DNA of 44,144 bases, from contig JAGSHD010000001.1 in assembly GCA_023954715.1 (NCBI GenBank), positions 556,468 through 600,611 of the forward strand, in the 5' to 3' direction. The notes beneath the pieces were generated by a model. That model saw nothing but the letters and a program-made list of their open reading frames with translations. It did no database searches and was not told the DNA's origin. This document shows positions 1-43,364 of this stretch, piece after piece. This stretch comes from Candidatus Cloacimonadota bacterium (lineage in GTDB: Bacteria; Muiribacteriota; UBA6191). Within the stretch, counting starts at the first letter, position 1, and every line of letters begins with the position of its first letter. A program made the translations under genes and the position numbers.

Positions 1-750
1 CTCAGGTAATCTACTCTTAGGATAAAAACAGACCAAAGGACTGGGTTTTTCAAAATTTTTGCTTTTTTTCAAAGAAATTGAAATCTTTATTTGTGGTAGC
101 TCTTCAATGGCTTCCAGATGAATCGATTGAAAACTAAAATCCCAGTCTATAACTTTGAATACACTTTCAAAATTTAGATCTTGGACACTTAAAATTGACC
201 GATCAACGATAAATCGAATCTGTGAATCTCTCGACCATATAATAGAGCAAGGATGAAACTTTTTCCAAGGCATGAATGTATCATAGTCATCCTTCCAAAA
301 TACTTTGGCTCCATAACTTTCTTGGGCTGAATAAAACAAGTATTGAGTACAATCTGTAACTTTCAACAACACTTCGCCTTCATCTAGCTTCAACATTTCA
401 ATATCGAAACACTCTAATTTAAAAGCTGCCAGTAAAAAATCCCTTAAAAAGTTTTCATACAATATTACGTACAAAATCTCTGGATTTTTTGTATATTCGT
501 CTAACTGATACAGTGACCACAACGGACTTTTTACAAAGTTTTTAGGTTTTTCATTTATATCAACAACTTCTATGCCATTTTCAATAAATAATGAGCTTTC
601 ATACTCACTATAAACCTTGTTTTCAAGACAAAAATCCAAACCCTCACGAGAGCTATATACCTCTTGTACTAATAGTTTAGGACAAGAGTGCATCCATCGT
701 AAAAGATAGGACTTAAGATAAGTCTCTTTTTCAAATTGAATCTGTTTCAT
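1..750 (-). CDS. hypothetical protein, 3' end truncated by the window edge (at least 250 aa)
   Basis: I translated the minus strand by hand from the ATG at 750..748 (MKQIQFEKETYLKSYLLRWMHSCPKLL...) and it stays open to position 1. It is absent from the supplied ORF track only because no stop lies inside the window. It sits 28 bp downstream of the 88-aa ORF on the same strand. No recognisable domain. Confidence 0.5.
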   Translation of the reverse strand, partial: MKQIQFEKETYLKSYLLRWMHSCPKLLVQEVYSSREGLDFCLENKVYSEYESSLFIENGIEVVDINEKPKNFVKSPLWSLYQLDEYTKNPEILYVILYENFLRDFLLAAFKLECFDIEMLKLDEGEVLLKVTDCTQYLFYSAQESYGAKVFWKDDYDTFMPWKKFHPCSIIWSRDSQIRFIVDRSILSVQDLNFESVFKVIDWDFSFQSIHLEAIEELPQIKISISLKKSKNFEKPSPLVCFYPKSRLPE

Positions 751-778
751 AGTTTCACTTTACACAATGATAAATCTA

Positions 779-1045
779 CTATCTTTGTATGATTGTCTTA
801 CGCTCCGCCTGGGCTTCTTCTACTTTTACATCATCACTTTGTATCTGGACGGGTTGCCTATTAAGCTGGATACCATCTATATCAGACAAATTCAATCCAT
901 TAGACTCTAAAATTTTGTTTACTAACTCTTTGTGATCTTCTTCGTGTTCAAAGGGTAATGCGTCGCCATCTGATTCATAGTCAATCAGTAGTTCTTGCTT
1001 TCCGTTTGTTGTATTTTTTTTTAATGTTAGGGTTATCTTTGACAT
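779..1045 (-). CDS. small acidic protein (88 aa), unknown function, translationally coupled to the upstream FtsH-like gene
   Basis: Its start codon overlaps the stop of the protease gene (TAATG at 1043..1047 on the minus strand). It is D/E-rich (DYESDGDALPFEHEEDHKE) with no TM segment and no motif I recognise. Confidence 0.5.
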   Translation of the reverse strand: MSKITLTLKKNTTNGKQELLIDYESDGDALPFEHEEDHKELVNKILESNGLNLSDIDGIQLNRQPVQIQSDDVKVEEAQAERKTIIQR

Positions 1046-3114
1046 TATGCCCCCTCTTGTCCTTGAAACAGTTTTTCAATATCAACTCTTTCAAGAGTTT
1101 CCTTGAGTATTAATTCTTCTTTTAGTTTATGTAGCATGTCTAATCTTGACTCTAATATTTGACGTGCTTTTTTCTTAGCTCTATCTAAAATCTCATCGAT
1201 TGCTCGATCTCTTTTATTTAAAATGTCAGTGGACATGTTTTTATCATCCACCACTCTTACCCCAAAGGCTTCTGACATTCCTAGTACAGACACCATTTCT
1301 TCTACTAACTTATTTGCTCGATAGATGTCATTTTGTGATCCAATACTCACATCTTTAAAGACCAAGGATTCGGCCTCTCTACCACCCATAAAAACGATCA
1401 AATCAGCTAATAACTGTTTTTTAGTAATGACATATTTATTTTTACGACCAACGTGCTGCACATATCCCAAAGCATCGGTATAGTCAGAATTAATGGAAAT
1501 CCTTTCTACATCAGTACTTTCTTTGATGCTTAAAGCCACAAGTGCATGGCCTGCTTCATGGTAGGCTACTACTTCTTTTTCTTCTGCATTTAAAACTACT
1601 TTGGTTTTTCCGCCATGCATAGCATCATATAGGTCTTTATCAGTAAATTCATTACGATTTTCTCTGAGTTGAACTCTTTTTAAGTAGCGCATGATTGCAT
1701 TTAAATGATCACCCGTATATTGACTCCCTGTCATAGCGTCAGTAGTTTCACCTGTTTTTCTTGTTAAGAAATCAAGCTGTCTATCATCTAATCCTAACTT
1801 CATTTTTTGATTGTACAAAGTTAAAACTGCTGCCCGATCTGTCTTATCAGGAAAAGGAATCTCTACTTTTAACTCAAAACGACCTGGACGTAAAAGTGCT
1901 GGATCTAGAGAACTTACAAAGTTAGTTGTCCCTACTATAAATACAAGCTCTTCTTTTCTGAATCCATCCATCTCAGTTAACAGCTGGTTTACCATAGAAT
2001 GATTCACTTCTGTTGAAGACCCACTATCTCTTGCACCAGCAAAAGAGTCTAACTCATCAAACACAATAATAGAAGGAGCCGATTGTCGAGCCTTGAAAAA
2101 TACTTTTCGGATGTTTTCTTCACTTTGCCCAACCCACATAGACTTCAACTCTGGTCCAGACACAATAATTATTGAAGCATTTAATGAAGTAGCCATCGCC
2201 TTGGCAAAAAATGTTTTACCTGTTCCGGGAGGACCATGAAAAATCAATCCTTTAGGAATAATAGCATCTATTTCTTTTAACTCATCTTCATCGCTTATCT
2301 CAGCCCGACGTTTTAAAATCTCTAAAATTTCTGACCCTAGCTTTTCTTTTACTTGCCCATATCCCCCAATGTCTTTTTGCATATCTACTAGAGGGATTTC
2401 CATGTCACTAGCAATGGACATTTCTCGTATCTGCGAAATTACCTTACCACTATCTTCAGGAAAATCGATCCCATCCAATCTTTGTAAAATTTGTCTTAGG
2501 CGAACCGGATTTAAACCAGAAACATATTGATATAAACTTTGAAAATTAAATGCTGGTGGAAATTTTCTAGCTTCTCTTTGAAGAATTAATCCATCCAAAC
2601 ATTTTCTATCTATTCCAAGTAGCTGCTTTTTAGCAGGAAATAGGTTTTCAATTACTTTTGAAAATGCAAAATACGGATCTTTAAAGGCCAAAAATACAAT
2701 ACGGGGGTTTTCATACAGTAGAGGTAAAATCTCTCTTGCCTCAGTAGTCAAACCTTCATTAGCAGAGTTGCTAACCAACAAATCTAAATGAGGCAATACT
2801 AAGACTTTATCCTCACTAGAGTTTCGCACCCAATGAGTAATTTGTAAAATCATGTTTCTTAGAACACTACCACTATCTTGAGCTCCTTCTGGAATTGCTC
2901 TGCCATCGAGAAACTCTAAGGTATACCCTTGATTTTTTAACTTAGTTCGTACGCACATATACAACCAAGGTATCAATTGTTTTTCGCACTCTAACAAAAC
3001 TGATACACCAGAAGACAGCTTTTGTACTGTCCATGCTATCTCACTGTTATAAGCGTATTCTAGGGCTTGTTTTTCTGATATTTCATTTGGAAGATTTTCA
3101 ATTTGAATTGTCAT
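1045..3114 (-). CDS. FtsH-like AAA+ ATPase / M41 zinc metalloprotease lacking transmembrane helices, with a ~285-aa N-terminal domain of unknown type
   Basis: Walker A GPPGTGKT, Walker B IIVFDELDS, second region of homology LLRPGRFELKV, zinc motif HEAGHALV. The downstream segment MGGREAESLVF...GSQNDIYRANKLVEEMVSVLGMSE is typical of the FtsH peptidase domain. The N-terminal 285 aa are hydrophilic (no TM) and carry no motif I recognise. Confidence 0.85.
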   Translation of the reverse strand: MTIQIENLPNEISEKQALEYAYNSEIAWTVQKLSSGVSVLLECEKQLIPWLYMCVRTKLKNQGYTLEFLDGRAIPEGAQDSGSVLRNMILQITHWVRNSSEDKVLVLPHLDLLVSNSANEGLTTEAREILPLLYENPRIVFLAFKDPYFAFSKVIENLFPAKKQLLGIDRKCLDGLILQREARKFPPAFNFQSLYQYVSGLNPVRLRQILQRLDGIDFPEDSGKVISQIREMSIASDMEIPLVDMQKDIGGYGQVKEKLGSEILEILKRRAEISDEDELKEIDAIIPKGLIFHGPPGTGKTFFAKAMATSLNASIIIVSGPELKSMWVGQSEENIRKVFFKARQSAPSIIVFDELDSFAGARDSGSSTEVNHSMVNQLLTEMDGFRKEELVFIVGTTNFVSSLDPALLRPGRFELKVEIPFPDKTDRAAVLTLYNQKMKLGLDDRQLDFLTRKTGETTDAMTGSQYTGDHLNAIMRYLKRVQLRENRNEFTDKDLYDAMHGGKTKVVLNAEEKEVVAYHEAGHALVALSIKESTDVERISINSDYTDALGYVQHVGRKNKYVITKKQLLADLIVFMGGREAESLVFKDVSIGSQNDIYRANKLVEEMVSVLGMSEAFGVRVVDDKNMSTDILNKRDRAIDEILDRAKKKARQILESRLDMLHKLKEELILKETLERVDIEKLFQGQEGA

Positions 3115-3200
3115 ATATCTTGACCTTTAATCTTAAGAATTCTAAAAGTTTATATTGATTGAGCTAATAAAAAGCTCTTTAAGGAAGCAATATGTATAAA

Positions 3201-3779
3201 TTATATCTTAACAATGATTTTAACTTCACCATTTTCTTTATCTTCAGCAATAGATTCAATCTCACCGATATTTCTTGCCTTCTTTTTTAAAGCTTCTATT
3301 TGTACAACCTCTACTAAGTCTTGAAACAATCCTTCAATCTCATCCAATTTTGGCTCGATTTCTTGTTCTAGTTTATTCTTGGCTGCTTTTTCATAATCTT
3401 TGGCTTCAGTTGATTCTTGTATAAACTTTTCTTTGGCTCTTTCTATGGCACTAGTAATCAAAGGTTCATCACTATACCCTGGATTGTATCCTGATATTTC
3501 TATAGTTTCTTCTCGTTCGAAAGTCTTTTCATCGTCATACTCAATGGACAGTAGCATAGACTCTTCATCGTATTCAATAGTCCAATTTCCATCTTGTTTT
3601 TGATGCACATTGCCTGATTTAGACCAATCATTTTCTTTGGCCAGCTCTTCTGATAAAAGTTTTGCCATTTCAACTTGGGGTAAAATAGGGAGAGTTTCAA
3701 TCAGTGACTTCCATTCTTCATTTACTTTGACTGTATTTCTGATGGTTTCTTTTCTAGATATTCTATATGTATGACTCAT
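3201..3779 (-). CDS. hypothetical acidic protein (192 aa, no Cys)
   Basis: ORF whose start overlaps the stop of the upstream 352-aa ORF by 4 nt (ATGA). E/K-rich, likely coiled-coil C-terminal half. No recognisable domain. Confidence 0.55.
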   Translation of the reverse strand: MSHTYRISRKETIRNTVKVNEEWKSLIETLPILPQVEMAKLLSEELAKENDWSKSGNVHQKQDGNWTIEYDEESMLLSIEYDDEKTFEREETIEISGYNPGYSDEPLITSAIERAKEKFIQESTEAKDYEKAAKNKLEQEIEPKLDEIEGLFQDLVEVVQIEALKKKARNIGEIESIAEDKENGEVKIIVKI

Positions 3780-4834
3780 TTTCTTACCTCGTTTGTTGCC
3801 ATATATTCAAGTTGTTTGTCGTAGATTTCTAATACAGGGTCTACTCTTTTTACTATCAGTCTTTGAAGTTTTTCAGCAATTTTAAAGTTTTCTTCAACGA
3901 AACCAATACTTTGCATTTCGCGTTTGACCTCAAGTATTTTATTTAGAAACTTCTGAAATGAAGACCTTATCTCAAGAATGACACCATATACATGTTTCTC
4001 TTCTAATGATTCAAAAGATTTCATTTCTAGATATCTATTTTTATTTAATAGTCCATTTTGTGAAATTCGATAAAATATCTCAATAGGAAGATAAAACAAA
4101 CTCCAAACTTCGTCTTTTATTCCTATAGAACACAACTCTATCAACTTTTGCAATACTAAACCAATTTCTTGCTGAACTACTTCATAATTTTTCAAATGAA
4201 ATTCAGACTCCCATTGCACAAAACTTTCTACATAATAATCTGTAGAAGCTATCATATAATATTGCTCTGCACTGCTTAACTCATTCCATCTAGGCATAAT
4301 TGATAGCGTATGGTATGAAAAATTAAAGGATGATAGAGGCATAGATTTATACAACTCGCTAAAGCGACTCATGAAAGCACGTTTTTTTGTATCTAAAGTC
4401 TTTCTAAACATTAAGTCTAAAAACACTTTTTCTGATCCAGAAAGTTTTCGATCAAACAGGTAACTAGAGTTTTCGTATTCTTCTTCATACCAAAGTTGCT
4501 GAATATCTCTTAAAACCATTAAAAAGTTTATACTAATCTTATACTCAGCTTCTAAGTCCCAAAATCTACAAAACTCTGCTATTGTACTCGTTTTATAAAC
4601 TCTGTTTTGCCAAGCTGAAGGCATGACTACATCATTCATAATCCAATTTTTTAATATTGAGTTTAGAACCTCTAAGCCACGGCTAGAAAACTTAAAACCT
4701 CTTGGAAACGATACTGGAGGAAAATAAGAAAATGCTGCTCCAATATCTCCATTTTTGATGCGAGTAAGAAAACTTAACAAATAATAATCATTGGCTGGTA
4801 ACAAGTTTTTTTTGCCAATATTCAAATGCGTCAT
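3776..4834 (-). CDS. hypothetical protein (352 aa)
   Basis: Long ORF with 4-nt ATGA overlaps to both neighbours (radical SAM gene upstream, 192-aa ORF downstream). No motif I recognise. Confidence 0.6.
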   Translation of the reverse strand: MTHLNIGKKNLLPANDYYLLSFLTRIKNGDIGAAFSYFPPVSFPRGFKFSSRGLEVLNSILKNWIMNDVVMPSAWQNRVYKTSTIAEFCRFWDLEAEYKISINFLMVLRDIQQLWYEEEYENSSYLFDRKLSGSEKVFLDLMFRKTLDTKKRAFMSRFSELYKSMPLSSFNFSYHTLSIMPRWNELSSAEQYYMIASTDYYVESFVQWESEFHLKNYEVVQQEIGLVLQKLIELCSIGIKDEVWSLFYLPIEIFYRISQNGLLNKNRYLEMKSFESLEEKHVYGVILEIRSSFQKFLNKILEVKREMQSIGFVEENFKIAEKLQRLIVKRVDPVLEIYDKQLEYMATNEVRK

Positions 4835-5412
4835 TTTTTAACTCGCTTCAAGTTTAAAACAGGAAAACCATGAACGCTTAAAGAGTTTCGTTTTAAAACA
4901 AGCTCTACTTGATTTCCTTTTTGAAACTCATCCATTTGATCTTGATAACGGTTCGTTAAAAAATGAATATTTTGGTTACTAGAACCCACCCATCGTCTAC
5001 TTGTTTGTCTTTGCGATGGAAGATATGGACCATCAACTAATAAATCCACAAATTGTAAAACCCTAGCCTTAATAGGATCCTTTTCAATTTCACTTAGATA
5101 ATATCCACTATAGAGCATAACACCAAGGTTTTCAGATTGTATAGCACTAAGGAGTTTGACTAATTCTTCGCTTTGGTCTAAAGGTTCACCACCTAACAGA
5201 CTAATCCCCTCGATATTATGAGTGTGTTTAGAGTTTTGGATGTTTAATTTTAAATTTTCAATGGAGGTTTGGGTGCCATTAGACCTGTTAAAAAGATGGG
5301 GATTACAACAATCTTCGCATCGAATACTACAACCGCTCAACCATAACGCATATCGCTTAAATGGTCCTTCGACTATTGTATGTTCTTTGATATCACCAAT
5401 ATATAAGCCCAC
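4831..5412 (-). CDS. radical SAM activating enzyme, NrdG/PflA (glycyl-radical-enzyme activase) family
   Basis: N-terminal LSGCSIRCEDCCNPHL fits the CX3CX2C cluster motif, flanked as in E. coli NrdG (SGCVHECPGCYNKSTW). GISLLGGEPLDQ matches the NrdG GISLSGGDPL SAM-binding motif. The size (193 aa) is typical of this small-activase subfamily. Confidence 0.8.
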   Translation of the reverse strand: MGLYIGDIKEHTIVEGPFKRYALWLSGCSIRCEDCCNPHLFNRSNGTQTSIENLKLNIQNSKHTHNIEGISLLGGEPLDQSEELVKLLSAIQSENLGVMLYSGYYLSEIEKDPIKARVLQFVDLLVDGPYLPSQRQTSRRWVGSSNQNIHFLTNRYQDQMDEFQKGNQVELVLKRNSLSVHGFPVLNLKRVKK

Positions 5413-5430
5413 TTTGGATGCCTACTTTGT

Positions 5431-5583
5431 TTATTCGGTACCGTACATCTGCTCATAAAGTGGTCTAGACAATGGTTTGAAAAAGGAAACTGCTATACAA
5501 CAAACACTAGCTAAAATTAATATTACCGCTAATAATGATAAAAGTTTATCCAAACCATCTGGTTCTACTCTTTTTGATCCCAT
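5431..5583 (-). CDS. possible small single-TM protein (50 aa): MGSKRVEPDGLDKLLSLLAVILILASVCCIAVSFFKPLSRPLYEQMYGTE
   Basis: Manual translation of the minus strand upstream of the radical SAM gene, below the ORF-track size cutoff. It has a hydrophobic core of about 20 residues. No strong RBS. Confidence 0.2.
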   Translation of the reverse strand: MGSKRVEPDGLDKLLSLLAVILILASVCCIAVSFFKPLSRPLYEQMYGTE

Positions 5584-5817: not shown

Positions 5818-6825
5818 TTATGAAATCTCTTGGATCAAATGTAAAATCATTTGTTTTGGTGCAATCCCGATCTGGGATAACAAAACCGGAAACATAGAAA
5901 TCGGTGTCATTCCTGGCAGAGTATTTACCTCATTAATATATATTTTATCATTCTCTAAAAAGAAGTCAACTCGTGCAAATCCCCTTCCCCCAAGGGTTTT
6001 AACAACATTGATTGCAGTAGTTTGAATCATTGTGTTTATGTGAGGAGATAACTCTACAATGGAGGCTTTAGACTCTTCTGATTTGTATTTTGCTTCATAA
6101 CTATAAAAGGAGTCATTAAAAGTGAGTTCTCCAATGGAAGATGCGCGCCACTCACCACCAATTTCAATTACTGCACATTCAATTTCTCTCCCAATACATT
6201 CGGGTTCTATCAATACCTTATTATCATGTATAAAAACATCATTCATGGCTTGAGTAAAGTCATCCGTAGGCTCAACCCTTTGCACGCCAACTGATGAACC
6301 CTGTCTACTAGGTTTTATAAAAATAGTCTGGTTTGCAAAAGGTCTTTTTAAGTCATCTCCTTTGCTAAACCATTGATAATCTAAAACGGGATAGCCTTTA
6401 TCTTGCAAAACTAATTTAGATAAAACCTTATCAAAAGTAAGTACTGAACTCTTAGCATCAAATCCTGCATATTTTATATTCAAACATTCAAATAGATGTA
6501 AAATTTTACCATCTTCACAAGATAAACCATGAACCATTGGTAATACATCAAAAGATGCATAGCCATTTTCTAGACAAGCTTCTTTAATACATCCCACCGA
6601 ATACCTTTTACCCTGCCCATTATATTCTAATAATGTACCTTGTCCTTGACAAAAGCTATAGTCATTGTAAACAGATATCGTAAAATCTTTATGTAAATAA
6701 ATTATAAAAGGGTCAGCATAGTCTCTAGGAAAGTTTTCATAGATAAATCGTCCTGAACTCAAAGAAATAGGCGCCTCCATTCCGGTACCACCCACTAAGA
6801 TGGCTATGTTTTTATCTGTGCTCAT
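5818..6825 (-). CDS. ddl: D-alanine--D-alanine ligase
   Basis: ATP-grasp protein whose C-terminus EVNTLPGMTPISMFPVLL matches the Ddl signature (E. coli RFLEANTSPGMTSHSLVP). I moved the start to the internal Met (MSTDKNIAILVGG) because a perfect AGGAG lies 4 nt upstream of ATG 6825..6823. The track ORF (to 6912) has a 29-aa extension that looks spurious. Confidence 0.85.
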   Translation of the reverse strand: MSTDKNIAILVGGTGMEAPISLSSGRFIYENFPRDYADPFIIYLHKDFTISVYNDYSFCQGQGTLLEYNGQGKRYSVGCIKEACLENGYASFDVLPMVHGLSCEDGKILHLFECLNIKYAGFDAKSSVLTFDKVLSKLVLQDKGYPVLDYQWFSKGDDLKRPFANQTIFIKPSRQGSSVGVQRVEPTDDFTQAMNDVFIHDNKVLIEPECIGREIECAVIEIGGEWRASSIGELTFNDSFYSYEAKYKSEESKASIVELSPHINTMIQTTAINVVKTLGGRGFARVDFFLENDKIYINEVNTLPGMTPISMFPVLLSQIGIAPKQMILHLIQEIS

Positions 6826-7036
6826 ATTTCTCCTAAAAGAAAAATTTAATCGAAAATATCTTAAATTCTCTCGAAACCATTTTAACTTGTTAAAATTCAA
6901 AGTATACTCCATAATATCGGTTAAAATTAGTTACGATTTTAAAGATAACAATAAATTGAATCTATCTTTTAATGAGTTACATAGTTTATGCTCGAATTGT
7001 TACTGTATATTTCTTTTTGTCTATAAACCTTTAATT

Positions 7037-9080: not shown

Positions 9081-11351
9081 TTAAGCCTTTATCTCTTGTA
9101 TTTTTGTCGTAACTTTATCTAATCTTTGTTGTTGCTTGGGGTCTGTCACGATTCCTTTAGATGCTTTTATAATCTCTAATGCTTTATCTAACTCACCTAA
9201 TTTTAAGCTGGTTGAAACTAAATCTCCATACCAAGAATCATTTTCGATTGTTAAAAAACCAAAAACAAGTTGTTTATAGGCATTTTTAAAATCACCTAAC
9301 TTTATGAATACTTGTGACAATAAAGAGTGTAAACGTACAGTATCGGGCAGAGTGCCATCTTGTATCATTTTTAAGATCTTTCTAAAAATAGGCCCCTGAA
9401 TCATTGATTTTGGCATTGCCGTCAATATTTCTATGAAGTTTCTATAATATCGATATTTGACATCTTGCTGATGTAATTTAGTTAGTAAAAACTCATCGCC
9501 TTTTTTAGCTTTTTTATACTGATAAGACAAGATTTCAAAGGTTAGCATACAGGTTTCATCTTGAGCAATAAGTCGTAAACATTGCTCCGTATCAACATCT
9601 TGCTCCATTTGCCGTGCTATATGAACTAAGGCCATTTGTATAAAAAAGTTTCGTAAGTATTTTTCACCAAGTTTACCGATAAACTGATGAGCTTTTCTCC
9701 ACTGTTTTTTAAGGCATAGGTCTCTTATTTTTATCATATACTCAAACAAGACATCATCAATAACACCATTAGAGCTTGAAACAAAGTCATGATCTCTAAA
9801 CCATATTTCTAAGTTTTCAATGATGATTGGATGTACATAATCTGTTGGCGTAAATTTTACATAATCATAAATTTGACGAATAGCTTGAATACCAACTCGT
9901 TGATCCACAGCACTTTCTGTAGCGATCAACTCTCTTAAATCATCTAAAACATAAGTAATCCCACCTAAAAACAAGACATAAGCTGCTACTGCTCTGTTTC
10001 TACCAGAATAGCTTTGATAATTTCGCTCTACATAGGATCGTAAGTCTGAGTTTGCCCAAAACTCTAGCCCTAGTAAAGCCGCTCTTTGGATCTCAACGTT
10101 TTCATCACCAAGTAACTCTTGATAGAGATCCTCTTTACCAGCTGGAACACTTTTAGCTATAGCATCAATACAAACTGAAACGATCTCTACATTATCTTTG
10201 TTTTTATTTAAAAGGTCATTGTAAAAGTCAAATAATGAAGCGTCTTCTAGGGTAGCTAATTGCTCAATTGCTTGAATTGTCACAAAGTCGATGTGACGAT
10301 CGCAAGCTTTCATCAATATATTTTTTACTTTTTCAGATTGGTTTCCTTGTAAAAAACGAATCACTTCTGTCAAAATATCTTCTCTTGTTTCGGATAATAA
10401 TAAAGAAGAGATCCAGTCTAACATTCTTTCATCTTTAGAAAACAACCTCGCCCCTTGAACCGCCATGATTCGAGCATCAAAAGAAGAGTTATTTAATAGA
10501 TTTGAAATTATTTTTAAACCTTTTTGTAAATCGTCATTAGACTTATTGTTTTCATATCGAATTGCCATTACTTCAGCAACGGTAGTAGCTAAACTAAAAC
10601 AATTTGAATCGGCATAGGTTTCTAACAAACTATCAGCAACTTGAGCCTCTTTTTTTAAGAAAATTAGACTTTGAATGGCTGCATTTACTACTAAATCAGC
10701 CTGCTTTTGTAAACATGACATGATTAGAGGAAACGCTATGTCTAAATCACCTTGGGCCATTACTCTTAGATAAGATGCTTTTAGATCAACACCTTCACAT
10801 TCATTGAATCGAGTCTTTAACATTTGGGTCTGAGCTTTTGAAAATTCACAAGTAAACAAAATCAATTTATCAAGTATAAATACTTCTTCTTCTTTGTTTA
10901 CATTGCCCAGGGACTCAATAACAAAATCTAAGCCTTCCGGATCTCCTAACTGACCCAAAGTAGCTATCATATCTTTTTTAACATGAGTTTCAAATTTATC
11001 CTGATTTTTTAACAAAAACTGGGTAATCTCTTTTGGTTTACCAAAATGCTTAAATGTGGAAAGAACCTCAATCTGTTGACCCATTGCTAAAGAAAAAATT
11101 TGTTTAGTCAAAACTTTGGCATAATAAGCGCTTGGCTTATTTTGGATGACTTTTATAACTGAATCAAAATATTCTTTGATATTAGATTCAGTAACCACTA
11201 GCTCGTCATATTTTGTAGATTTTAAATTTGCAATGAGCAAAATAGAAGTATGAACTAAATCCTTTTTGGGACTTTTCAATAGATCCGGTAAAAAATCAAA
11301 ATGAGGCGATAGAATTACCTCTAATAGATCTAATAATTTATTTGAAGACAT
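9081..11351 (-). CDS. large HEAT/ARM-repeat protein (756 aa), unknown function
   Basis: Repetitive alpha-helical pairs (LLxxLxDx-type repeats such as VQGARLFSKDER, IQAIEQLATLED, RAALLGLEF). No catalytic motif. Sits 6 bp upstream of the FKBP gene. Confidence 0.6.
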   Translation of the reverse strand: MSSNKLLDLLEVILSPHFDFLPDLLKSPKKDLVHTSILLIANLKSTKYDELVVTESNIKEYFDSVIKVIQNKPSAYYAKVLTKQIFSLAMGQQIEVLSTFKHFGKPKEITQFLLKNQDKFETHVKKDMIATLGQLGDPEGLDFVIESLGNVNKEEEVFILDKLILFTCEFSKAQTQMLKTRFNECEGVDLKASYLRVMAQGDLDIAFPLIMSCLQKQADLVVNAAIQSLIFLKKEAQVADSLLETYADSNCFSLATTVAEVMAIRYENNKSNDDLQKGLKIISNLLNNSSFDARIMAVQGARLFSKDERMLDWISSLLLSETREDILTEVIRFLQGNQSEKVKNILMKACDRHIDFVTIQAIEQLATLEDASLFDFYNDLLNKNKDNVEIVSVCIDAIAKSVPAGKEDLYQELLGDENVEIQRAALLGLEFWANSDLRSYVERNYQSYSGRNRAVAAYVLFLGGITYVLDDLRELIATESAVDQRVGIQAIRQIYDYVKFTPTDYVHPIIIENLEIWFRDHDFVSSSNGVIDDVLFEYMIKIRDLCLKKQWRKAHQFIGKLGEKYLRNFFIQMALVHIARQMEQDVDTEQCLRLIAQDETCMLTFEILSYQYKKAKKGDEFLLTKLHQQDVKYRYYRNFIEILTAMPKSMIQGPIFRKILKMIQDGTLPDTVRLHSLLSQVFIKLGDFKNAYKQLVFGFLTIENDSWYGDLVSTSLKLGELDKALEIIKASKGIVTDPKQQQRLDKVTTKIQEIKA

Positions 11352-31776: not shown

Positions 31777-34700
31777 TTATTGGCCTATCTCTAGGTCTAA
31801 CAATCGATTGGCCTTAATGTTAATCACTCCATCTTTTGAGACTCTTCGCCCCTCTGCAATTATAAAGTTAGATCGCCTAAAAATAATCCTATATTGCTCA
31901 TAAATTAATGGGGGTAATATGATGTTCATCATTCCAAACTCATCCTCTAATGTTAAAAATGCAAAGCCTTTAGCAGTAGGAGGACGTTGCCTGCAAACAC
32001 TCATTCCCGCTACTTTTAAAATATGTCCATTTCTAACTGTTTTTAATCTTGTAGAAGGAACAACCCCTGTTTTCACTAAGCTATCTCTCACCAATTTTAA
32101 TGGGTGTGTGGATGCAGAAAATCCTATAGATGAAAACTCATTTTGTAGCTTACTCCAATCACTTTCACTAGGAAGATCAGGCTCTTTTTCTTTCACTTGT
32201 ATCCATGATTTTTGTAAACTCCTCTTTTTATAAGCCCATAAACTCCATAATAACTCTCGTCTTGCTTGTTTAAAACAGTCAAAAGCTCCAGCTAGTATCA
32301 TATATTCAATTTTTTTATGATCCATATCTGTTCTATCTATAAAATCATACAGTCCTTCAAATATTTTTTCAGACCGAATAGAGTATATTTTTTCGCAAGC
32401 TGATATGGATAAACCTTTGATTAAATTTAATCCAATAAAAATTTTATTAGCTGCTCCAAAACAATATATTTCACTCTTATTAACACTAGGAGGAATGATT
32501 TCTATCCCATGATGCTTAGCATCTTGAATAATTACCTCATTTGAATAAAACCCCATAGGATGATGGTTTAGTATAGACGCCAAAAACTCTGCTGGATAAT
32601 ATTTTTTATACCAAGCTGACACATAAGTTATTTTTGCAAAAGCAAGCGCATGGGATTTACAAAATCCATATAATGCAAATCCTTCAAGAGCTTTATATAT
32701 GGAGTCAATCGCATCAAAGCTAAGTCCATTTTTTAAAGCTCTTTCAAAAAATACAGATTTTAACTGGGCCATAAGCTCTTTTGATCTTTTTTTACTCATA
32801 TTACGTCGTAATACATCCGCTTCTCCCTCACTAAAATCAGCAATCTCAATAGCCACTTGTAAAATTTGCTCTTGAAATAAAATTACCCCTAAAGTGTCTT
32901 TTAAAATTGGCTCCAAACTTGGGTGGTCATACTCTACCACTTCTTCTTTTTGCCTTCTTCTTATATAAGGATTTACCATCCCTCCTTGGAGTGGACCCGG
33001 TCTTATGATAGCTACTTGAATTGCTAATTCATGGAAGTTTCTTGGTTTTGTGCGAGGCAAACTCTGCATCTGTGCTCTTGACTCTACCTGAAACAAGCCC
33101 ACTGTATCTGCTTTACCCATTATGTCATAAACTCGTGGGTCATCCTCTTCAATATCTCTATAGTCGATCACACGATTTGTCGATTTTTTAATCTGATTTT
33201 TAACATCTCTTAAAACCGATAGCATCCTAAGACCTAAGATATCTACTTTAATTAGTCCAGCCTCCTCTACCATATCTTTATCCCACTGGCATACAACTCT
33301 GTTGTTCATCCTAGCGGGTTCTAGTGGTACAACTCTATGGATAGGTATAGATGATATAAGCATACCTCCCACATGAATCGAAGGATGCCTTGGTATGTTC
33401 ATGATAGCGTGTACCATATTTTGAAATACAATCCATGTTTTGGACTGAAGAAGCTTTGAAAACTCCTCCAATTTTGAAAAATCATCAAATGAAACTTTGG
33501 AGTTGTAAGTGCCGCATGTTTTAGCCATTTTTGATAAAACATGATCTGGAAACTCTAGTACCTTGCCAACTTCTTTTATGGCGCTACGAGCTCTAAATGT
33601 TACAAAAGTACAAACCATAGCTACATGATCATAACCGTACTTTTTATACACATATTGAATGATATCTTCTCGATCAAGCTCATTACCATTTGGGTAGCTA
33701 GCAAAGTCAATATCTATATCCGGAATCGCATCAGAGGATTCATTTAAAAACCTTCCAAAAAATAAATTGTGTTTAATAGGACAAACAGGAGTTATATCTA
33801 ATAAATAGGCTACTAAGGAGTTAGCTGCCGATCCTCTTCCTTGTGCTGGAATATTTTTGCCTAACGAATACTGAACAATATCCCAAACTAATAAAAAGTA
33901 TCCACATAAGGATTTATTTTTAATAACTTTTAGCTCAACCTCAAGTCTTTTATTTACTTCTCCTCTGTCTATGGTATTATTTTCAAAAGATACTCTATAT
34001 TTACGAGGAATCGCCTCATAGCATAGCTTTTGTAAGTAAGAATCTACCTTATACGAAGGTGGCACAGGAAAGTCCGGAAACCTATATTTTGAAAAATCTA
34101 AATTTAAACTACAAGACTCTGATATTTTTTGAGTATTATTTAATACTCTAGGATATTTTTTAAATAAGTCATTCATCTCTTCAAACGACTTTATAAATCT
34201 TTCATGGTTTGCAAATCTCAGACTATGTGACTCTCTTAGATTTACTTTATTTTTAATACATAATAATACATCCTGTAGTTTTGCATCCTCTCTTTTTGCA
34301 TAATGAACCCCGTTACTAGCGATGCACTCTATTTGCCTAGAGCTCGCATATTCATAAATCAAATCACAATGCTTTCTATCTTCTTTTTCTTTATGGTGAT
34401 TTAACTCAAAATACAAGTCTTGTTTATCAATATGTTTTAAATAGCTCGATACCAACTGATCTGCTTGATCTACTTTATTTTTTACTAACAAGTCATGTAA
34501 TACAGTAGATTTAAACCCTATCAAAACAAAAAAGTTATCATTTAACTCTAATAACATTTCATAAGTCGTCTTACTTATCCCCTTTTCTTGGCTTTTTCGT
34601 GATGCTGATATGATTGAGCATAAACTTTCGTAAGCACTTTGATTTTTACAAATCACCAAAATTTTATCGTTATTTTCTAATAATAAAATTGAGCCAATGA

Positions 34701-34884
34701 TTGGCTTGATCTCTAGCTCTATACATTTTTTGTAAAATGGTATTACTCCATACAAACCGGACTCATCAGTTAATGCAATAGCAGATAAACCCTTCTCCTT
34801 AGCCATAATTACCAAGTCTTCTGGGCTCGAAGAAGCACATAAAAACGAAAAATAACTCTGACTATGTAACTCTGAAAAAGACAT
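31777..34884 (-). CDS. dnaE2: error-prone DNA polymerase III alpha paralogue DnaE2 (ImuC)
   Basis: N-terminal PHP domain (ELHSQSYFSFLCASSSPEDL), polymerase core (GRGSAANSLVAYLLDITPV, DIDIDF), OB-fold C-terminus. At 1035 aa it lacks the tau/beta-binding tail of DnaE1. It sits immediately downstream of the imuB-like gene. Confidence 0.85.
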   Translation of the reverse strand: MSFSELHSQSYFSFLCASSSPEDLVIMAKEKGLSAIALTDESGLYGVIPFYKKCIELEIKPIIGSILLLENNDKILVICKNQSAYESLCSIISASRKSQEKGISKTTYEMLLELNDNFFVLIGFKSTVLHDLLVKNKVDQADQLVSSYLKHIDKQDLYFELNHHKEKEDRKHCDLIYEYASSRQIECIASNGVHYAKREDAKLQDVLLCIKNKVNLRESHSLRFANHERFIKSFEEMNDLFKKYPRVLNNTQKISESCSLNLDFSKYRFPDFPVPPSYKVDSYLQKLCYEAIPRKYRVSFENNTIDRGEVNKRLEVELKVIKNKSLCGYFLLVWDIVQYSLGKNIPAQGRGSAANSLVAYLLDITPVCPIKHNLFFGRFLNESSDAIPDIDIDFASYPNGNELDREDIIQYVYKKYGYDHVAMVCTFVTFRARSAIKEVGKVLEFPDHVLSKMAKTCGTYNSKVSFDDFSKLEEFSKLLQSKTWIVFQNMVHAIMNIPRHPSIHVGGMLISSIPIHRVVPLEPARMNNRVVCQWDKDMVEEAGLIKVDILGLRMLSVLRDVKNQIKKSTNRVIDYRDIEEDDPRVYDIMGKADTVGLFQVESRAQMQSLPRTKPRNFHELAIQVAIIRPGPLQGGMVNPYIRRRQKEEVVEYDHPSLEPILKDTLGVILFQEQILQVAIEIADFSEGEADVLRRNMSKKRSKELMAQLKSVFFERALKNGLSFDAIDSIYKALEGFALYGFCKSHALAFAKITYVSAWYKKYYPAEFLASILNHHPMGFYSNEVIIQDAKHHGIEIIPPSVNKSEIYCFGAANKIFIGLNLIKGLSISACEKIYSIRSEKIFEGLYDFIDRTDMDHKKIEYMILAGAFDCFKQARRELLWSLWAYKKRSLQKSWIQVKEKEPDLPSESDWSKLQNEFSSIGFSASTHPLKLVRDSLVKTGVVPSTRLKTVRNGHILKVAGMSVCRQRPPTAKGFAFLTLEDEFGMMNIILPPLIYEQYRIIFRRSNFIIAEGRRVSKDGVINIKANRLLDLEIGQ

Positions 34885-36360
34885 CTAAATGGAGTATTTA
34901 GTATAAAACCACTCTTGATCGCAACGATCAAAAAATATAGATGAAATTTGACCCTCTAATAAAAGGAGTAAAAAGTATTGTCTTTGAATCGGTTTTTCTA
35001 GCCACCATTCATCTTCAAAAATCCATGATCTTAATATTTTTTTTATAAAATAAGAACGACCCTTTAAATCAAACTTTTTTGGAATGTTTTCTTTTGATAA
35101 AACTCGAATTGGAATTGGCTTTAAAGTCTTTTTTGTCTCATAATTATCATCTACTAAAGTTAAATGTGATCTCTTTTCTGGTAGAATATGGTCTTCATTG
35201 TCCCAATCAAAATTATAAACTTTTAACTTTTTTTTATTTAAACGATGTATGCTCTGATGAATTGACCTCAACTTAGTAGAGCTCTTTAAAAAGTCCATTA
35301 AACTCTCTTGTTTTGAAAATTCAGAAAGTGTCTTGGGTATTTTAACTTTAAAAGCTACTACAGGATGATATAAGCGCATATTTAATAATTGATCTTCTAG
35401 CTGTCTAATCCATGTTTTCATATCACGGTTTGCCTTGGAAAAGCTCATGTCAAAATAAAGTGGAGCTCCTTGATCAAAAATTATTTGAATCGATATTTTA
35501 GCAGTTAATTGATGTCTTTCTTTTAATAGACTATTAAATACTAAAAGCTCAGACTTAATTTCTGAAGTCAAAAATGACAAATCCCATACCCAAGTACTAA
35601 AATACTTTTCTTTTTCTAAAATAATATTAGGATGCGATATCTTTAATGGATTAAAAATTTGACCACGAATTAATTTATATATACGCTCTCCTTCTTGAGA
35701 AAACTGTAAATATAACTCCTTATGTGTTAGACGAAACAAATCTTTAATTTTATATATTCCTAGCTTATACATTTTATTCAAATCTCTATTACTCAAGTTT
35801 AAATATTGAACCGAAATGTCGCCTAAATACTCTGCTTCTTTATTTTTTTTGATTAATAAACATTGCCCAGATTTAATCTTATGTAAAGCTAAATTTGCTA
35901 AAAACTTTGTACTTGCGATACTCACGCATGCTTTTAATTTTAGTTCACTTAAAATAGTACGGATCAATTTTAGACAAAAGTCCGATTGCTTATCCTCTTG
36001 AATCGCTGGATCCAATTCAAAATAAAACAACCCATAATCAGATTTTTCAACTTTTGGGGAGTAGCGATAAATAATTTCAAAAAGATCTTTTTGCTCTTTT
36101 TCTAAAATATTTTGTTCGCTTTGGATAAAACCGGCCTGAAAACATAAAGACTCTGCTTTTTTATGAAGCATTGAGACCTCTACCCCACACCTCGCTGCAA
36201 AACTAGATAAATCAGACACACGCAATGGTAGACTAGATGAATCCAATAAAATATAAGGTTTATCTAAAGGTAAGTTTTTATGCTTAACATGAGCATAAGT
36301 CTTAAAATATGGAATAGATACACAAACAATCATAAAATTATTATGAATTGTTTTAAGCAA
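34885..36360 (-). CDS. imuB: ImuB-like inactive Y-family polymerase paralogue
   Basis: N-terminal Y-family fold with the catalytic Asp replaced (IVCVSIPYF in place of LVDCNNFY), long C-terminal extension, gene abutting dnaE2 (34884/34885). The start may be the TTG at 36360 or the ATG at 36333. Confidence 0.6.
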   Translation of the reverse strand: MLKTIHNNFMIVCVSIPYFKTYAHVKHKNLPLDKPYILLDSSSLPLRVSDLSSFAARCGVEVSMLHKKAESLCFQAGFIQSEQNILEKEQKDLFEIIYRYSPKVEKSDYGLFYFELDPAIQEDKQSDFCLKLIRTILSELKLKACVSIASTKFLANLALHKIKSGQCLLIKKNKEAEYLGDISVQYLNLSNRDLNKMYKLGIYKIKDLFRLTHKELYLQFSQEGERIYKLIRGQIFNPLKISHPNIILEKEKYFSTWVWDLSFLTSEIKSELLVFNSLLKERHQLTAKISIQIIFDQGAPLYFDMSFSKANRDMKTWIRQLEDQLLNMRLYHPVVAFKVKIPKTLSEFSKQESLMDFLKSSTKLRSIHQSIHRLNKKKLKVYNFDWDNEDHILPEKRSHLTLVDDNYETKKTLKPIPIRVLSKENIPKKFDLKGRSYFIKKILRSWIFEDEWWLEKPIQRQYFLLLLLEGQISSIFFDRCDQEWFYTKYSI

Positions 36361-40664: not shown

Positions 40665-43364
40665 TTATTGTTTATTTAGAGTATAAGTACCATTACATTG
40701 TCCACTCGTCCAATTACCAGTAATTTGAGTATTCGTTGCATTTAATGCACCCATTGAGAAAGTATTGTTACTATCTAAAAAGGTAATACTTGTACCAGAA
40801 GTCGTTAAAGTAGTTCCGTAAAATGTTGATTTATCACTATTTTGAGCAGACCAAGACTGATTCTTTTCACTGATATTGACTATCATAGAACCATCAGCAC
40901 CACAACTATCGGTTAATGCGCCAGTCCATTGACCAATAAAATTTGGCTCAACACCAGAAGCTAACTTACTCGGCTTAACTTTAACAATAAAAACAGCTCC
41001 ATTTGAAAGGTCATTATTATTATAAAAACCACCTTCAAAGCCTTTAGCGGTAGTAGCTCCCTTATCTGCTTTTAACAATACAAATCCAGAAATAGATCCA
41101 TAACTCTTTAAAAAGAAGCTAAAGTCACCATCAAAAGTTAGTTTACCACCATCAACAATTACCACACCATTTAATGAATTAGGTTTATTTAAGCTGTTTG
41201 TCTCACTATGGTTTTGAGTAAATTTTGTACTGATTAGGTTTACTACATTTAAACTAGCATCAACTGTGAAATTTGCTGTTCCACGGTATCTTGCATTTAA
41301 CTGACTCGAATAAGTAGTTACTCCTGACTGATAATACTCTGCTCGCGTATCATCAAATACCGCATTTAAAGTGTTAGTACCATTTTTAGTATAAGTAACA
41401 GTTGAATTTGTTGAAGTATTTACCTTCTCTCCTCGGTGATAAGAAACCACTCGAGTACGAGTTACTTTAATACCTGCAAATGTCCAAGTAATATTTTTTG
41501 TCGAAGTTAACTGATTCGCCTCAAAATACTCTTTAGTTAAACTCAAAGATGATCCATCTGTATTTACTACGAAATTATATTTTTCGATACCTGATGTTAG
41601 TGTACGACTCCAAGTAACCCCTGTAGTATTCAATGCATTAAAAACACTGTTTCCACCAAGAAAGTTATTACTATTTGTAATAATAATATTATTAGCTAAA
41701 GTTGCATTTGCAGTATCAATCGTATCATCTAAACCAACAGAAAGAGTTTCGTAAGGTATTTTTGTTTGAATATAAGATTTTAAACCAGCGTTACCTTCAA
41801 TACCATCTCCTTTTGATAAAACATCAATTAACGTCGTATCATCAATAAACAAAATTGCTGCATCATTTGTTTCTTCGATCGTTCCATCTGTTTTAACTTT
41901 AATATCAACAGATACTTTTCCAGCTGTTGTCACTTTTGATAAATCCTGACTTAAAACAGTTACTTCATCTAAAGTAAAGTTATTTGGAATGCGTAAACTT
42001 ACGCTGTTATTTACTAATAAAGCTATATCAATTGTTTGCTTTAAAGACGTACTATTTGTTTTGAAAATTGAGTTTCCACTCTGACTGTCAATCGTTCCTG
42101 AAAAATGTCCCTTTGCTATTACCACAGGAGTCTTTAAAACATTATAACCATTGATGGTTGTATTACTCGCAACCTGCATACCATTAGCTTGTGCCAAAAC
42201 AAATGGAGCCAATTGTAATTGAGCTTTTAAGTTTTCTGATTTTGTACCTGTTACATTAATATTACTAGCAACACTTTGCCATGCTGTCCCATCAAATCTT
42301 AAATAAGTTAAACCTGTTTTATTGATATCAGAAAAATTATAAGAATCAATGACTTCACTTACTATATTTGCGTCAACGACACTTTTTACATTATTACCCG
42401 ATGTATCCTTTAAAATAATGTCAGCGCCCATAACAACTTGATAACCAGCATCTCTTAACAAGTCATACTTAGGAATATCAATTAAGCTTTTATAAGGAGT
42501 AACAAATACTTTGTATTGTGTAGCTTTTGTTGTAACTTCAACTAGCTTTTTTACGACTACTAGATCGCCTATCTTAGCTGGAGTTGTTTTATTTATAAAA
42601 GATAGATCACTTGTTAAATTATCAGAAGACTTTTCAGAAAAGCTGATTTCGTTATCTGCACTTAAGCCAATTTGAGTTTTACTTTTAGTAGATTCTTCGA
42701 TTTTATTTTCATCACTAGTTAGTTTTACAATCTCCTTTAGCTTTTGTACTAAAGGGTTTGTAGTTGCACTTGGTGCAGGACTTTTATCCAGAATAAGGTT
42801 CTTGAACAAATCTTGAGTAGAAGAAGTAGTATCAGTAACAATTTTAGCTATATCACTACTAGAAGCCGACAAACCATTGAACAGTTTAGTATCTAATTCT
42901 TGTAAATATTTTTGAAAAGTTTTAGGATTTAAATTTTGAGAATAGTTTTGGGCAACTGATGCCCCTAATTGAATATCTCCTACTGCTTTCACAGGAGCAA
43001 ACATAACAAAGTTTAAATTACCAGCAGCAGCATTATCAATAGGATCGACCGTTGCTAAAGTATTGCTACCTTCAGCAATTAACATATACTCAATACCTGG
43101 GTCTAAAATATATTCAATTGCAAATTTACCTTCATCATCTGAGATGTCATTTGGTTCTCCACTATCAAAAACGCCATTGTAATTTAGATCTAAAAATACT
43201 CTTGAATTTTTGATAGGCCCATCACTAACAATACCGCTAATAACACTTATTACACCTGGATCACTTGTAGCAACTGCACCGCCACTACCACCACCACAAC
43301 CAGTAATGAAAAATATTAGTGAAACCAAGAGCCCCACAACAAAAGTACTTTTTATTTTGTTCAT
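40665..43364 (-). CDS. large Ser/Thr/Asn-rich lipoprotein (899 aa), probable surface or adhesin-like protein
   Basis: Lipoprotein signal LVSLIFFITG-C followed by a GGGSGG linker. The rest is beta-rich low-complexity polar sequence with few charged stretches. Confidence 0.7.
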   Translation of the reverse strand: MNKIKSTFVVGLLVSLIFFITGCGGGSGGAVATSDPGVISVISGIVSDGPIKNSRVFLDLNYNGVFDSGEPNDISDDEGKFAIEYILDPGIEYMLIAEGSNTLATVDPIDNAAAGNLNFVMFAPVKAVGDIQLGASVAQNYSQNLNPKTFQKYLQELDTKLFNGLSASSSDIAKIVTDTTSSTQDLFKNLILDKSPAPSATTNPLVQKLKEIVKLTSDENKIEESTKSKTQIGLSADNEISFSEKSSDNLTSDLSFINKTTPAKIGDLVVVKKLVEVTTKATQYKVFVTPYKSLIDIPKYDLLRDAGYQVVMGADIILKDTSGNNVKSVVDANIVSEVIDSYNFSDINKTGLTYLRFDGTAWQSVASNINVTGTKSENLKAQLQLAPFVLAQANGMQVASNTTINGYNVLKTPVVIAKGHFSGTIDSQSGNSIFKTNSTSLKQTIDIALLVNNSVSLRIPNNFTLDEVTVLSQDLSKVTTAGKVSVDIKVKTDGTIEETNDAAILFIDDTTLIDVLSKGDGIEGNAGLKSYIQTKIPYETLSVGLDDTIDTANATLANNIIITNSNNFLGGNSVFNALNTTGVTWSRTLTSGIEKYNFVVNTDGSSLSLTKEYFEANQLTSTKNITWTFAGIKVTRTRVVSYHRGEKVNTSTNSTVTYTKNGTNTLNAVFDDTRAEYYQSGVTTYSSQLNARYRGTANFTVDASLNVVNLISTKFTQNHSETNSLNKPNSLNGVVIVDGGKLTFDGDFSFFLKSYGSISGFVLLKADKGATTAKGFEGGFYNNNDLSNGAVFIVKVKPSKLASGVEPNFIGQWTGALTDSCGADGSMIVNISEKNQSWSAQNSDKSTFYGTTLTTSGTSITFLDSNNTFSMGALNATNTQITGNWTSGQCNGTYTLNKQ

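Follow-up and report, generated by a model that had tools for sequence, protein, structure and literature searches.

The closest described relative of the locus analysed here is the FtsH ternary system, which was described computationally by Kaur, Burroughs, Iyer and Aravind (eLife 2020, PMC7159879). According to the passages of that paper that concern the system, its core consists of a MoxR protein, a very divergent vWA protein and an FtsH protein whose N-terminal AAA+ domain is inactive, with both P-loop and Walker B lost, and whose C-terminal AAA+ domain is active. In the simple subtype the effectors are standalone genes, including a radical S-adenosylmethionine (radical-SAM) enzyme with a separate peptide gene, and the divergent vWA bears a helical region at its N-terminus; caspase-like and effector-associated domains occur in sister subtypes. 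The same passages predict a regulated cell-suicide or defence machine, and Pfam holds families built for the system: fvmX5, fvmX3-analog, fvmX6, fvmX7, ivWA and bpMoxR. Here we analysed a 44,144-nucleotide stretch of contig JAGSHD010000001.1 from a Candidatus Cloacimonadota bacterium (hereafter the window, meaning this whole stretch). The minus-strand gene array at its left end very probably belongs to an FtsH-MoxR-vWA ternary system, in its simple radical-SAM subtype, of which the window contains the upstream two-thirds.

Several features of the array support this assignment. The FtsH architecture that defines the system, a dead N-terminal AAA+ domain followed by a live C-terminal one, is present in the window protein, and the system-specific families fvmX5 and fvmX3-analog are both found above their Pfam gathering cut-offs. 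A standalone radical-SAM gene is the first large gene of the array, and in this clade only, a separate peptide gene lies beside it. This peptide may be the one meant in the 2020 paper. An earlier note on this DNA had described the array as matching no system that could be named; it is the FtsH ternary system, for which dedicated Pfam families exist. The features are as follows.

5431..5583, minus strand: membrane-peptide gene, 50 aa, single-pass, from reading of the open reading frame (ORF); 18 bp upstream of the radical-SAM start
4831..5412, minus strand: NrdG/PflA-type radical-SAM enzyme, 193 aa, GTG start, from Fer4_12 and motifs
3776..4834, minus strand: putative divergent fvmX6, 352 aa, from hhalign together with position and length
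3201..3779, minus strand: fvmX5, 192 aa, from PF20003
1045..3114, minus strand: FtsH-like protein, 689 aa, from its AAA+ and M41 domains
2380..3114, minus strand: D1 of the FtsH-like protein, residues 1-245, degenerate (inactive) AAA+ according to the structure model
1615..2259, minus strand: D2 of the FtsH-like protein, residues 286-500, active classical AAA+ module, PF00004 at 1.1e-41
1069..1596, minus strand: M41 zinc-metalloprotease domain of the FtsH-like protein, residues 507-682, PF01434 at 6.4e-41
779..1045, minus strand: fvmX3-analog, 88 aa, from PF20002
1..750, minus strand: putative divergent fvmX7, N-terminal 250 aa with the rest beyond the window edge, from synteny and hhalign
5818..6912, minus strand: ddl (D-Ala-D-Ala ligase), flanking housekeeping gene, from Dala_Dala_lig Pfam domains in relatives

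The analysis was sequence-based; gene positions are window coordinates on the minus strand, and the window is cut inside the last gene of the array. The ORF list and direct translation bore out the six consecutive minus-strand ORFs of the earlier note at their positions, as well as the junctions it had claimed. The radical-SAM and X6 genes overlap by ATGA at 4831-4834 and the X6 and X5 genes by ATGA at 3776-3779, the FtsH-like stop overlaps the X3-analog start as TAATG at 1045, and the X5 and FtsH-like genes are separated by the 86-bp gap that had been reported; a further gap of 28 bp lies between the X3-analog and X7. The 192-aa and 88-aa proteins are indeed acidic (pI 4.63 and 4.70), and ddl does adjoin the array upstream. 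The unit of six genes, however, was drawn too small, since the 50-aa peptide gene had been overlooked and synteny adds the remainder of X7, MoxR and ivWA. Scanning the window against Rfam gave no RNA family, and a promoter and terminator scan of the window did no better than on shuffled sequence.

The D2 module of the FtsH-like protein carries Walker A (GPPGTGKT at 294), a WVG pore loop at 327, Walker B (DELD at 353), sensor-1 (TTN at 396) and arginine fingers (RPGR at 409), and these motifs are kept in at least 90% of 113 FtsH-like homologues. The M41 active site, HEAGH, lies at 519, and HExGHA, GGREAE and GSxxD are conserved across the family; residues 247-683 align to the solved FtsH structures 2ce7 and 8vw9. 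The N-terminal region, which the earlier note had left as a domain of unknown type, is modelled as a soluble AAA+ fold with a lost P-loop, that is, as a degenerate AAA+ domain. Since an hhalign comparison of this domain with the protein's own D2 AAA+ module was not significant, the AAA+ call rests on the structure model. A possible glycyl-radical site at 'VSGLN' in the same domain was rejected, as it sits in a small helical subdomain and was read as an AAA+ lid motif of the 'SGAD' type.

With canonical membrane-bound FtsH the protein shares one active AAA+ module, with aromatic pore loop and arginine fingers, and the M41 HEXXH. It differs in having no transmembrane helices or periplasmic domain and in bearing an extra dead AAA+ ring N-terminally. 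The lack of a transmembrane anchor, already read in the earlier note, is seen in a maximum 19-residue Kyte-Doolittle value of 1.46. Against TIGR01241 the protein scores 298 bits, with a cut-off of 600. The M41 site is intact in the window protein, whereas the passages of the 2020 paper on this component describe it as a second AAA+ chaperone. Hundreds of full-length homologues were found at 45-88% identity, in addition to a 100% identical entry from a Candidatus Cloacimonetes metagenome-assembled genome (MAG). Variants of about 975 aa (P0020-P0023 and P0029) have the dead N-domain, two active AAA+ modules (two GPPGTGKT) and then M41.

The 88-aa protein encoded after the FtsH-like gene belongs to the fvmX3-analog family (PF20002, 5.2e-20), and its E33-H34-E35-x-x-H38 motif is invariant in 65 of 65 homologues. 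An X3-analog gene follows the FtsH-like gene in 49 of the 56 loci that have downstream flank, including loci that lack the other components. In five planctomycete loci (Planctomycetota; L005, L028, L036, L053 and L056) the FtsH-like and fvmX3-analog genes stand alone, with the radical-SAM enzyme, X5, X6, X7, MoxR and ivWA not found within 10 kb; in L005 the pair adjoins Ser/Thr kinases and an Hsp70 gene.

The remaining proteins of the array were assigned by profile comparison at different depths. X5 matches PF20003 (fvmX5) over its full length at 1e-27 and scores 105 bits against a hidden Markov model (HMM) built from other phyla. The 352-aa X6 and the X7 fragment have no Pfam match, and HMMs built from the planctomycete and myxobacterial families of X6 and X7 fail to recognise either of them. 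When families were instead aligned to families, hhalign joined X6 of the Cloacimonadota-like clade to planctomycete and myxobacterial X6 (96.6%, E 6.2e-10, 330 columns) and the X7 of this clade to planctomycete and myxobacterial X7 (100%, E 7e-40, 1038 columns). The position and length of the window X6 match those of the Pfam-certified fvmX6 of Labilithrix, and X6 proteins of clade relatives give sub-threshold PF20004 matches. In the closest relative a 1054-aa protein occupies the position of X7, and the window fragment shares 63% identity with its N-terminus; full-length X7 has about 1050-1090 aa in clade relatives, and the Labilithrix X7 is a PF20005 protein. On these profile alignments the 352-aa protein and the truncated protein are taken to be divergent fvmX6 and fvmX7.

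The AlphaFold2 model of X6 is all-helical at low confidence (pLDDT 54.7), and the protein is predicted to be all-alpha. A HMMER scan with a three-sequence X6 profile against 1.84 billion representatives returned 11 hits, including one spurious match to an Ig domain, and did not reach the planctomycete fvmX6 proteins. A word-indexed homology search with X6 found only 3 proteins, and the same kind of search with the X7 fragment gave no match. The window X6, whose gene bears the locus tag KC646_02230, has a 100% identical database entry. Public data contain very few members of the X6 subfamily of this clade. In ten loci (L030, L033, L037, L040, L049, L054, L057, L058, L065 and L074), mostly from Gemmataceae and Isosphaeraceae, the fvmX3-analog is followed not by one fvmX7 gene but by two paralogues in tandem, each of about 1100 aa.

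The radical-SAM enzyme gave only Fer4_12 (1.6e-30) and Radical_SAM matches in Pfam. As the earlier note had read, it contains CSIRCEDC at residue 28, with the CX3CX2C cysteines at C28, C32 and C35, and GGEP at 74; the cluster and GGEP motifs are conserved across the family, and EGPGxR, LVDGxY and RRWxGSxNQ are conserved in 48 system-linked homologues. Against the NrdG model TIGR02491 it reaches 114.4 bits, below the cut-off of 126.1, and other activase models score far below theirs, while it reaches 209 bits against an HMM made solely of radical-SAM enzymes from the planctomycete and myxobacterial systems. The nearest solved structure is PflA 3c8f (E 1e-6). The enzyme thus shares with the NrdG and PflA activases a compact Fer4_12 fold, a CX3CX2C motif after an EGPGxR-type glycine-rich motif, GGEP, LVDG and GSxNQ, but differs from them in scoring under the NrdG cut-off, in a C-terminal extension of about 40 aa and in the linkage of its gene to fvmX6 and the FtsH system. 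It also differs in having no glycyl-radical partner: as had been noted before, no glycyl-radical enzyme is encoded in the operon or among the window's ten large ORFs that were scanned.

The 50-aa peptide encoded upstream of this enzyme has a strong transmembrane segment (Kyte-Doolittle 3.04). Homologous genes for peptides of 50-64 aa lie directly upstream of the radical-SAM gene in 9 of 9 other Cloacimonadota-like loci (10 of 10 with the window), and the alignment shows an invariant Cys in the transmembrane helix as well as invariant L15, L22 and L38. The membrane peptide may be a substrate or an effector, and in this clade it is the best candidate for what the radical-SAM enzyme acts on.

Since the window ends inside the array, relatives were used to follow it beyond position 1. 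In the closest relative, MAG NORP72, the FtsH-like protein is 88% identical to that of the window and the locus is syntenic, in the order ddl, a 50-aa ORF, Fer4_12 radical-SAM enzyme, 357-aa protein, fvmX5, AAA+M41, fvmX3-analog, 1054-aa protein, bpMoxR (PF20030) and ivWA (PF19997, with a weak ivWA-helical_N match), followed by unrelated genes. A relative at 61% identity has the same gene order, continuing with X7, bpMoxR and ivWA, and in Labilithrix every component is labelled by Pfam: Fer4_12, fvmX6, fvmX5, AAA+M41, fvmX3-analog, fvmX7, bpMoxR and ivWA-helical_N with ivWA. MoxR HMM matches occur in every clade locus with enough downstream sequence. This synteny places the window edge within fvmX7 and predicts MoxR and vWA genes immediately beyond position 1. 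To extend the contig past that point, metagenome contigs were scanned for an exact 45-nt DNA match and exact-protein look-ups were made with the FtsH-like protein and X6; neither gave a match. In the NCBI assembly of NORP72 (L001/L007, 15527-16499) MoxR appears as two overlapping ORFs and is missing from the gene calls, whereas in its Logan assembly (L002, 15527-16492) MoxR is intact; the split is probably an assembly frameshift.

We then asked how widely the genes travel together. A one-genome-per-species collection was scanned with an alignment of the FtsH N-domain, giving 395 confirmed matches, and 80 loci were fetched and annotated with HMMs built from seed loci. The radical-SAM, X6 and X5 genes lie upstream on the same strand in 43 of the 65 loci with upstream flank. 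Downstream, X7 is present in 42 of 56 loci and the X3-analog, as given above, in 49. All six window genes, in the order rSAM-X6-X5-FtsH-X3a-X7 and on one strand, are found in 24 of the 41 species-level loci with both flanks, and MoxR and ivWA accompany them in at least 10 of these 41. The latter count is a lower bound because the HMMs for MoxR and ivWA are weak and because a second X7 paralogue in some Gemmataceae displaces these two genes out of range. This gene arrangement is far beyond chance. The genes that the earlier note had taken for one functional unit are co-inherited, and they co-occur across genomes in the same order. Some planctomycete, myxobacterial and proteobacterial loci (L052, L069, L073, L077, L079, L080 and L086) have an extra 1-3.6 kb separating system genes, such as X6 from X5. 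Cultured carriers of the system include Limnoglobus roseus PX52 and Gemmata algarum (loci L075 and L033).

The components evolve at unequal rates. Over the relatives, identity falls from 88% to 45% for the FtsH-like protein, from 65% to 48% for MoxR and from 65% to 35% for the radical-SAM enzyme, while over the same relatives X6 and X7 go from about 62% to undetectable. The rates are therefore mosaic, with conserved motors and fast X proteins. In conservation the FtsH-like protein and MoxR equal or exceed DnaB and surpass ddl, whereas X6, X7 and ivWA diverge much faster than their housekeeping neighbours.

Wherever upstream sequence is preserved in loci of this clade, the system is found at one and the same site, following DnaB, a HEAT-like protein, FKBP, GDPD and ddl, and this synteny extends across nine species-level relatives, even where ddl identity is 37-43%. 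Between the ddl stop and the peptide start, 7 of 9 clade loci show a distance of -20 to +1 bp; in the closest relative it amounts to 51 bp, and in the window to 234 bp. No ddl lies beside the system in other phyla; ddl was considered as a general component of the system and rejected, since it is absent outside this clade. The HEAT-like protein at this site (756 aa; window 9081-11351, minus strand; L002 2485-4755) has only faint HEAT-repeat similarity, and its gene is found between the DnaB and FKBP genes in the window and five clade loci at 28-70% identity.

Set beside the described FtsH ternary system, the locus shares its component families and gene order, including a standalone radical-SAM gene with a small peptide gene nearby, and the relatives of the window share MoxR followed by a divergent vWA with an N-terminal helical region. 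The locus differs from it in its Cloacimonadota-like host, which lies outside the groups named in the passages of the 2020 paper on the system and in which multicellularity is not known. It differs also in X6 and X7 proteins too divergent for current Pfam models, in the clade-specific membrane peptide gene and in the fixed ddl-coupled site. With the MoxR-vWA chaperone pairs (RavA-ViaA, NorQ-NorD, CbbQ-CbbO) and the VMAP and iSTAND ternary conflict systems, the system shares MoxR and vWA adaptor genes, which end the operon in the relatives, and the logic of a core ATPase switch combined with variable effector modules. It differs from these in that the third core component is an FtsH-type protease in place of VMAP or iSTAND and the vWA is of the degenerate ivWA type. 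The locus is a divergent member, truncated by the window edge, of a catalogued and experimentally uncharacterised family.

From the gene content, gene order, motifs, folds and co-inheritance observed above we infer every functional step that follows, the defensive role included. The slowly evolving enzymes, that is the FtsH-like protein, MoxR and the radical-SAM enzyme, would form the engine, and the fast-evolving helical X6, X7, ivWA and X5 would serve a large complex as its scaffold or as its sensor surface. The variable proteins would sense a trigger, presumably an invader, after which MoxR with its vWA adaptor would remodel the complex. The FtsH-like hexamer, aided or gated by its zinc-motif partner, the X3-analog, would draw a substrate through the D1/D2 stack and would unfold and degrade or process an inhibitory component, thereby licensing the effector arm. 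The radical-SAM enzyme would constitute that arm, using radical chemistry to alter a protein or a peptide. Its target in this clade may be the Cys-bearing membrane peptide encoded immediately upstream of it, and the modified peptide would damage the membrane. A conflict or regulated-proteolysis class, which the earlier note had suggested, is what the passages of the 2020 paper on the system predict for this gene set. For the role in biological conflict taken by itself we see an even chance; the ternary-system identity combined with the proposed mechanism is, in our judgement, a likely explanation and the best overall.

Several observations weigh against this explanation. MoxR and ivWA, two of the three core components, are not seen in the window, which ends inside X7. 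We found no experimental work on the FtsH ternary system in the literature beyond the 2020 analysis. No named-system model of PADLOC-DB 2.0 matched, the similarities there being generic AAA+ ones (IetA, TRIP13) and a marginal pVip. The 193-aa radical-SAM enzyme has no SPASM/twitch or RRE domain in Pfam and curated-model scans, so that for such an NrdG-like enzyme peptide modification is not the default expectation. No peptide gene of this kind is present in planctomycete or myxobacterial system loci, and the peptide therefore cannot be a universal substrate of the enzyme. In this clade, moreover, the system appears from the gene junctions to be often translationally coupled to ddl. Together with a housekeeping site that stays fixed at deep ddl divergence, this coupling looks like long vertical inheritance and not like a mobile defence island.

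These last observations suit a vertically inherited cellular machine, in which MoxR and vWA would mature or remodel a complex and the FtsH-like protein would carry out quality control around the radical enzyme, perhaps in envelope biogenesis given the ddl coupling. The DnaB-HEAT-FKBP-GDPD-ddl synteny in nine relatives at ddl identities as low as 37%, the overlapping or abutting ends of ddl and the peptide gene in 7 of 9 loci, and the conservation of the FtsH-like protein and MoxR at least like DnaB and above ddl all speak for it, and the known pairs RavA-ViaA, NorQ-NorD and CbbQ-CbbO are maturation chaperones, as is well established and as the passages of the 2020 paper on MoxR and vWA also state (PMC7159879). 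However, the ddl linkage is restricted to this clade and the genomic contexts in other phyla are unrelated, X6, X7 and ivWA outpace their housekeeping neighbours in divergence, and sister subtypes bear the caspase-like and effector-associated domains reported in the passages of PMC7159879 that describe them. We consider this alternative rather unlikely. More doubtful still is a reading in which the system of this clade has been domesticated, the operon being chromosomal, inherited vertically and fused to ddl. An NrdG-type radical-SAM enzyme would here modify a peptide that is not a glycyl-radical enzyme, and the output of the system would be this membrane micro-protein with its Cys. The soluble tandem-AAA+ FtsH protease, with its EHExxH partner, would control whether the output is released or destroyed.

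The small conserved gene immediately upstream of the radical-SAM gene, the invariant Cys of its product and the protease in the same operon could also be read as a cluster resembling those for ribosomally synthesized and post-translationally modified peptides (RiPPs), in which the radical-SAM enzyme would modify a precursor and the FtsH-like protein would assist in its cleavage or export, giving a secreted or membrane-active product. To this we assign very little probability, since, besides the small size of the enzyme without SPASM/twitch or RRE and the planctomycete and myxobacterial versions that keep it without such a peptide, no transporter gene is present, and four large non-enzymatic proteins with two AAA+ motors are unlike a RiPP cluster. 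The best curated match of the enzyme is NrdG (TIGR02491, 114 bits), with LVDG and GSxNQ in common, so that an NrdG activase was also weighed, its NrdD having diverged or been split and the FtsH-like gene being an unrelated neighbour. Against it, the score lies under the family cut-off, profile searches identified the neighbours as fvmX6 and fvmX5 and not as NrdD pieces, and the FtsH-like gene accompanies the radical-SAM gene in 43 of 65 loci in three phyla. By-eye inspection found no RVxG[YF]-type motif at conserved positions of X6, X5, the X3-analog or the FtsH-like protein. A split NrdD is effectively refuted, and we give this reading next to no weight.

Elsewhere in the window, at 31777-36360 on the minus strand, a 491-aa impB/mucB/samB gene (Y-family, ImuB-like) lies directly upstream of a gene for a 1035-aa DnaE-type Pol III alpha protein with PHP, NTPase, finger and HHH domains; from its gene content this pair looks like an imuB-dnaE2 mutagenesis cassette. 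An 899-aa ORF at 40665-43364 (minus strand) matches no Pfam family at E <= 1e-5.

Taken alone, the locus is another member of a catalogued family, the FtsH ternary system being one of several large ATPase-centred systems predicted in silico as bacterial counterparts of regulated cell-death machinery. Its relatives extend this picture, since the complete array of 9-10 genes is intact in the same order across three phyla, with motors conserved at least as well as DnaB while the helical partners have diverged so far that HMMs no longer recognise them. In at least one lineage the system has been fixed beside an essential cell-wall gene and has gained a membrane peptide. The fixed ddl-coupled site and the high conservation of the motors leave room for a non-defensive, domesticated role and cast doubt on a purely defensive system. 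The peptide, the EHExxH partner and the ddl coupling offer leads, among them candidates for the long-missing substrate of the radical-SAM enzyme and for a partner of the protease. If the domesticated form were the true one, this operon would represent a membrane effector of a new kind, gated by a protease and activated by radical chemistry, whose purpose might be envelope homeostasis and not anti-phage suicide.

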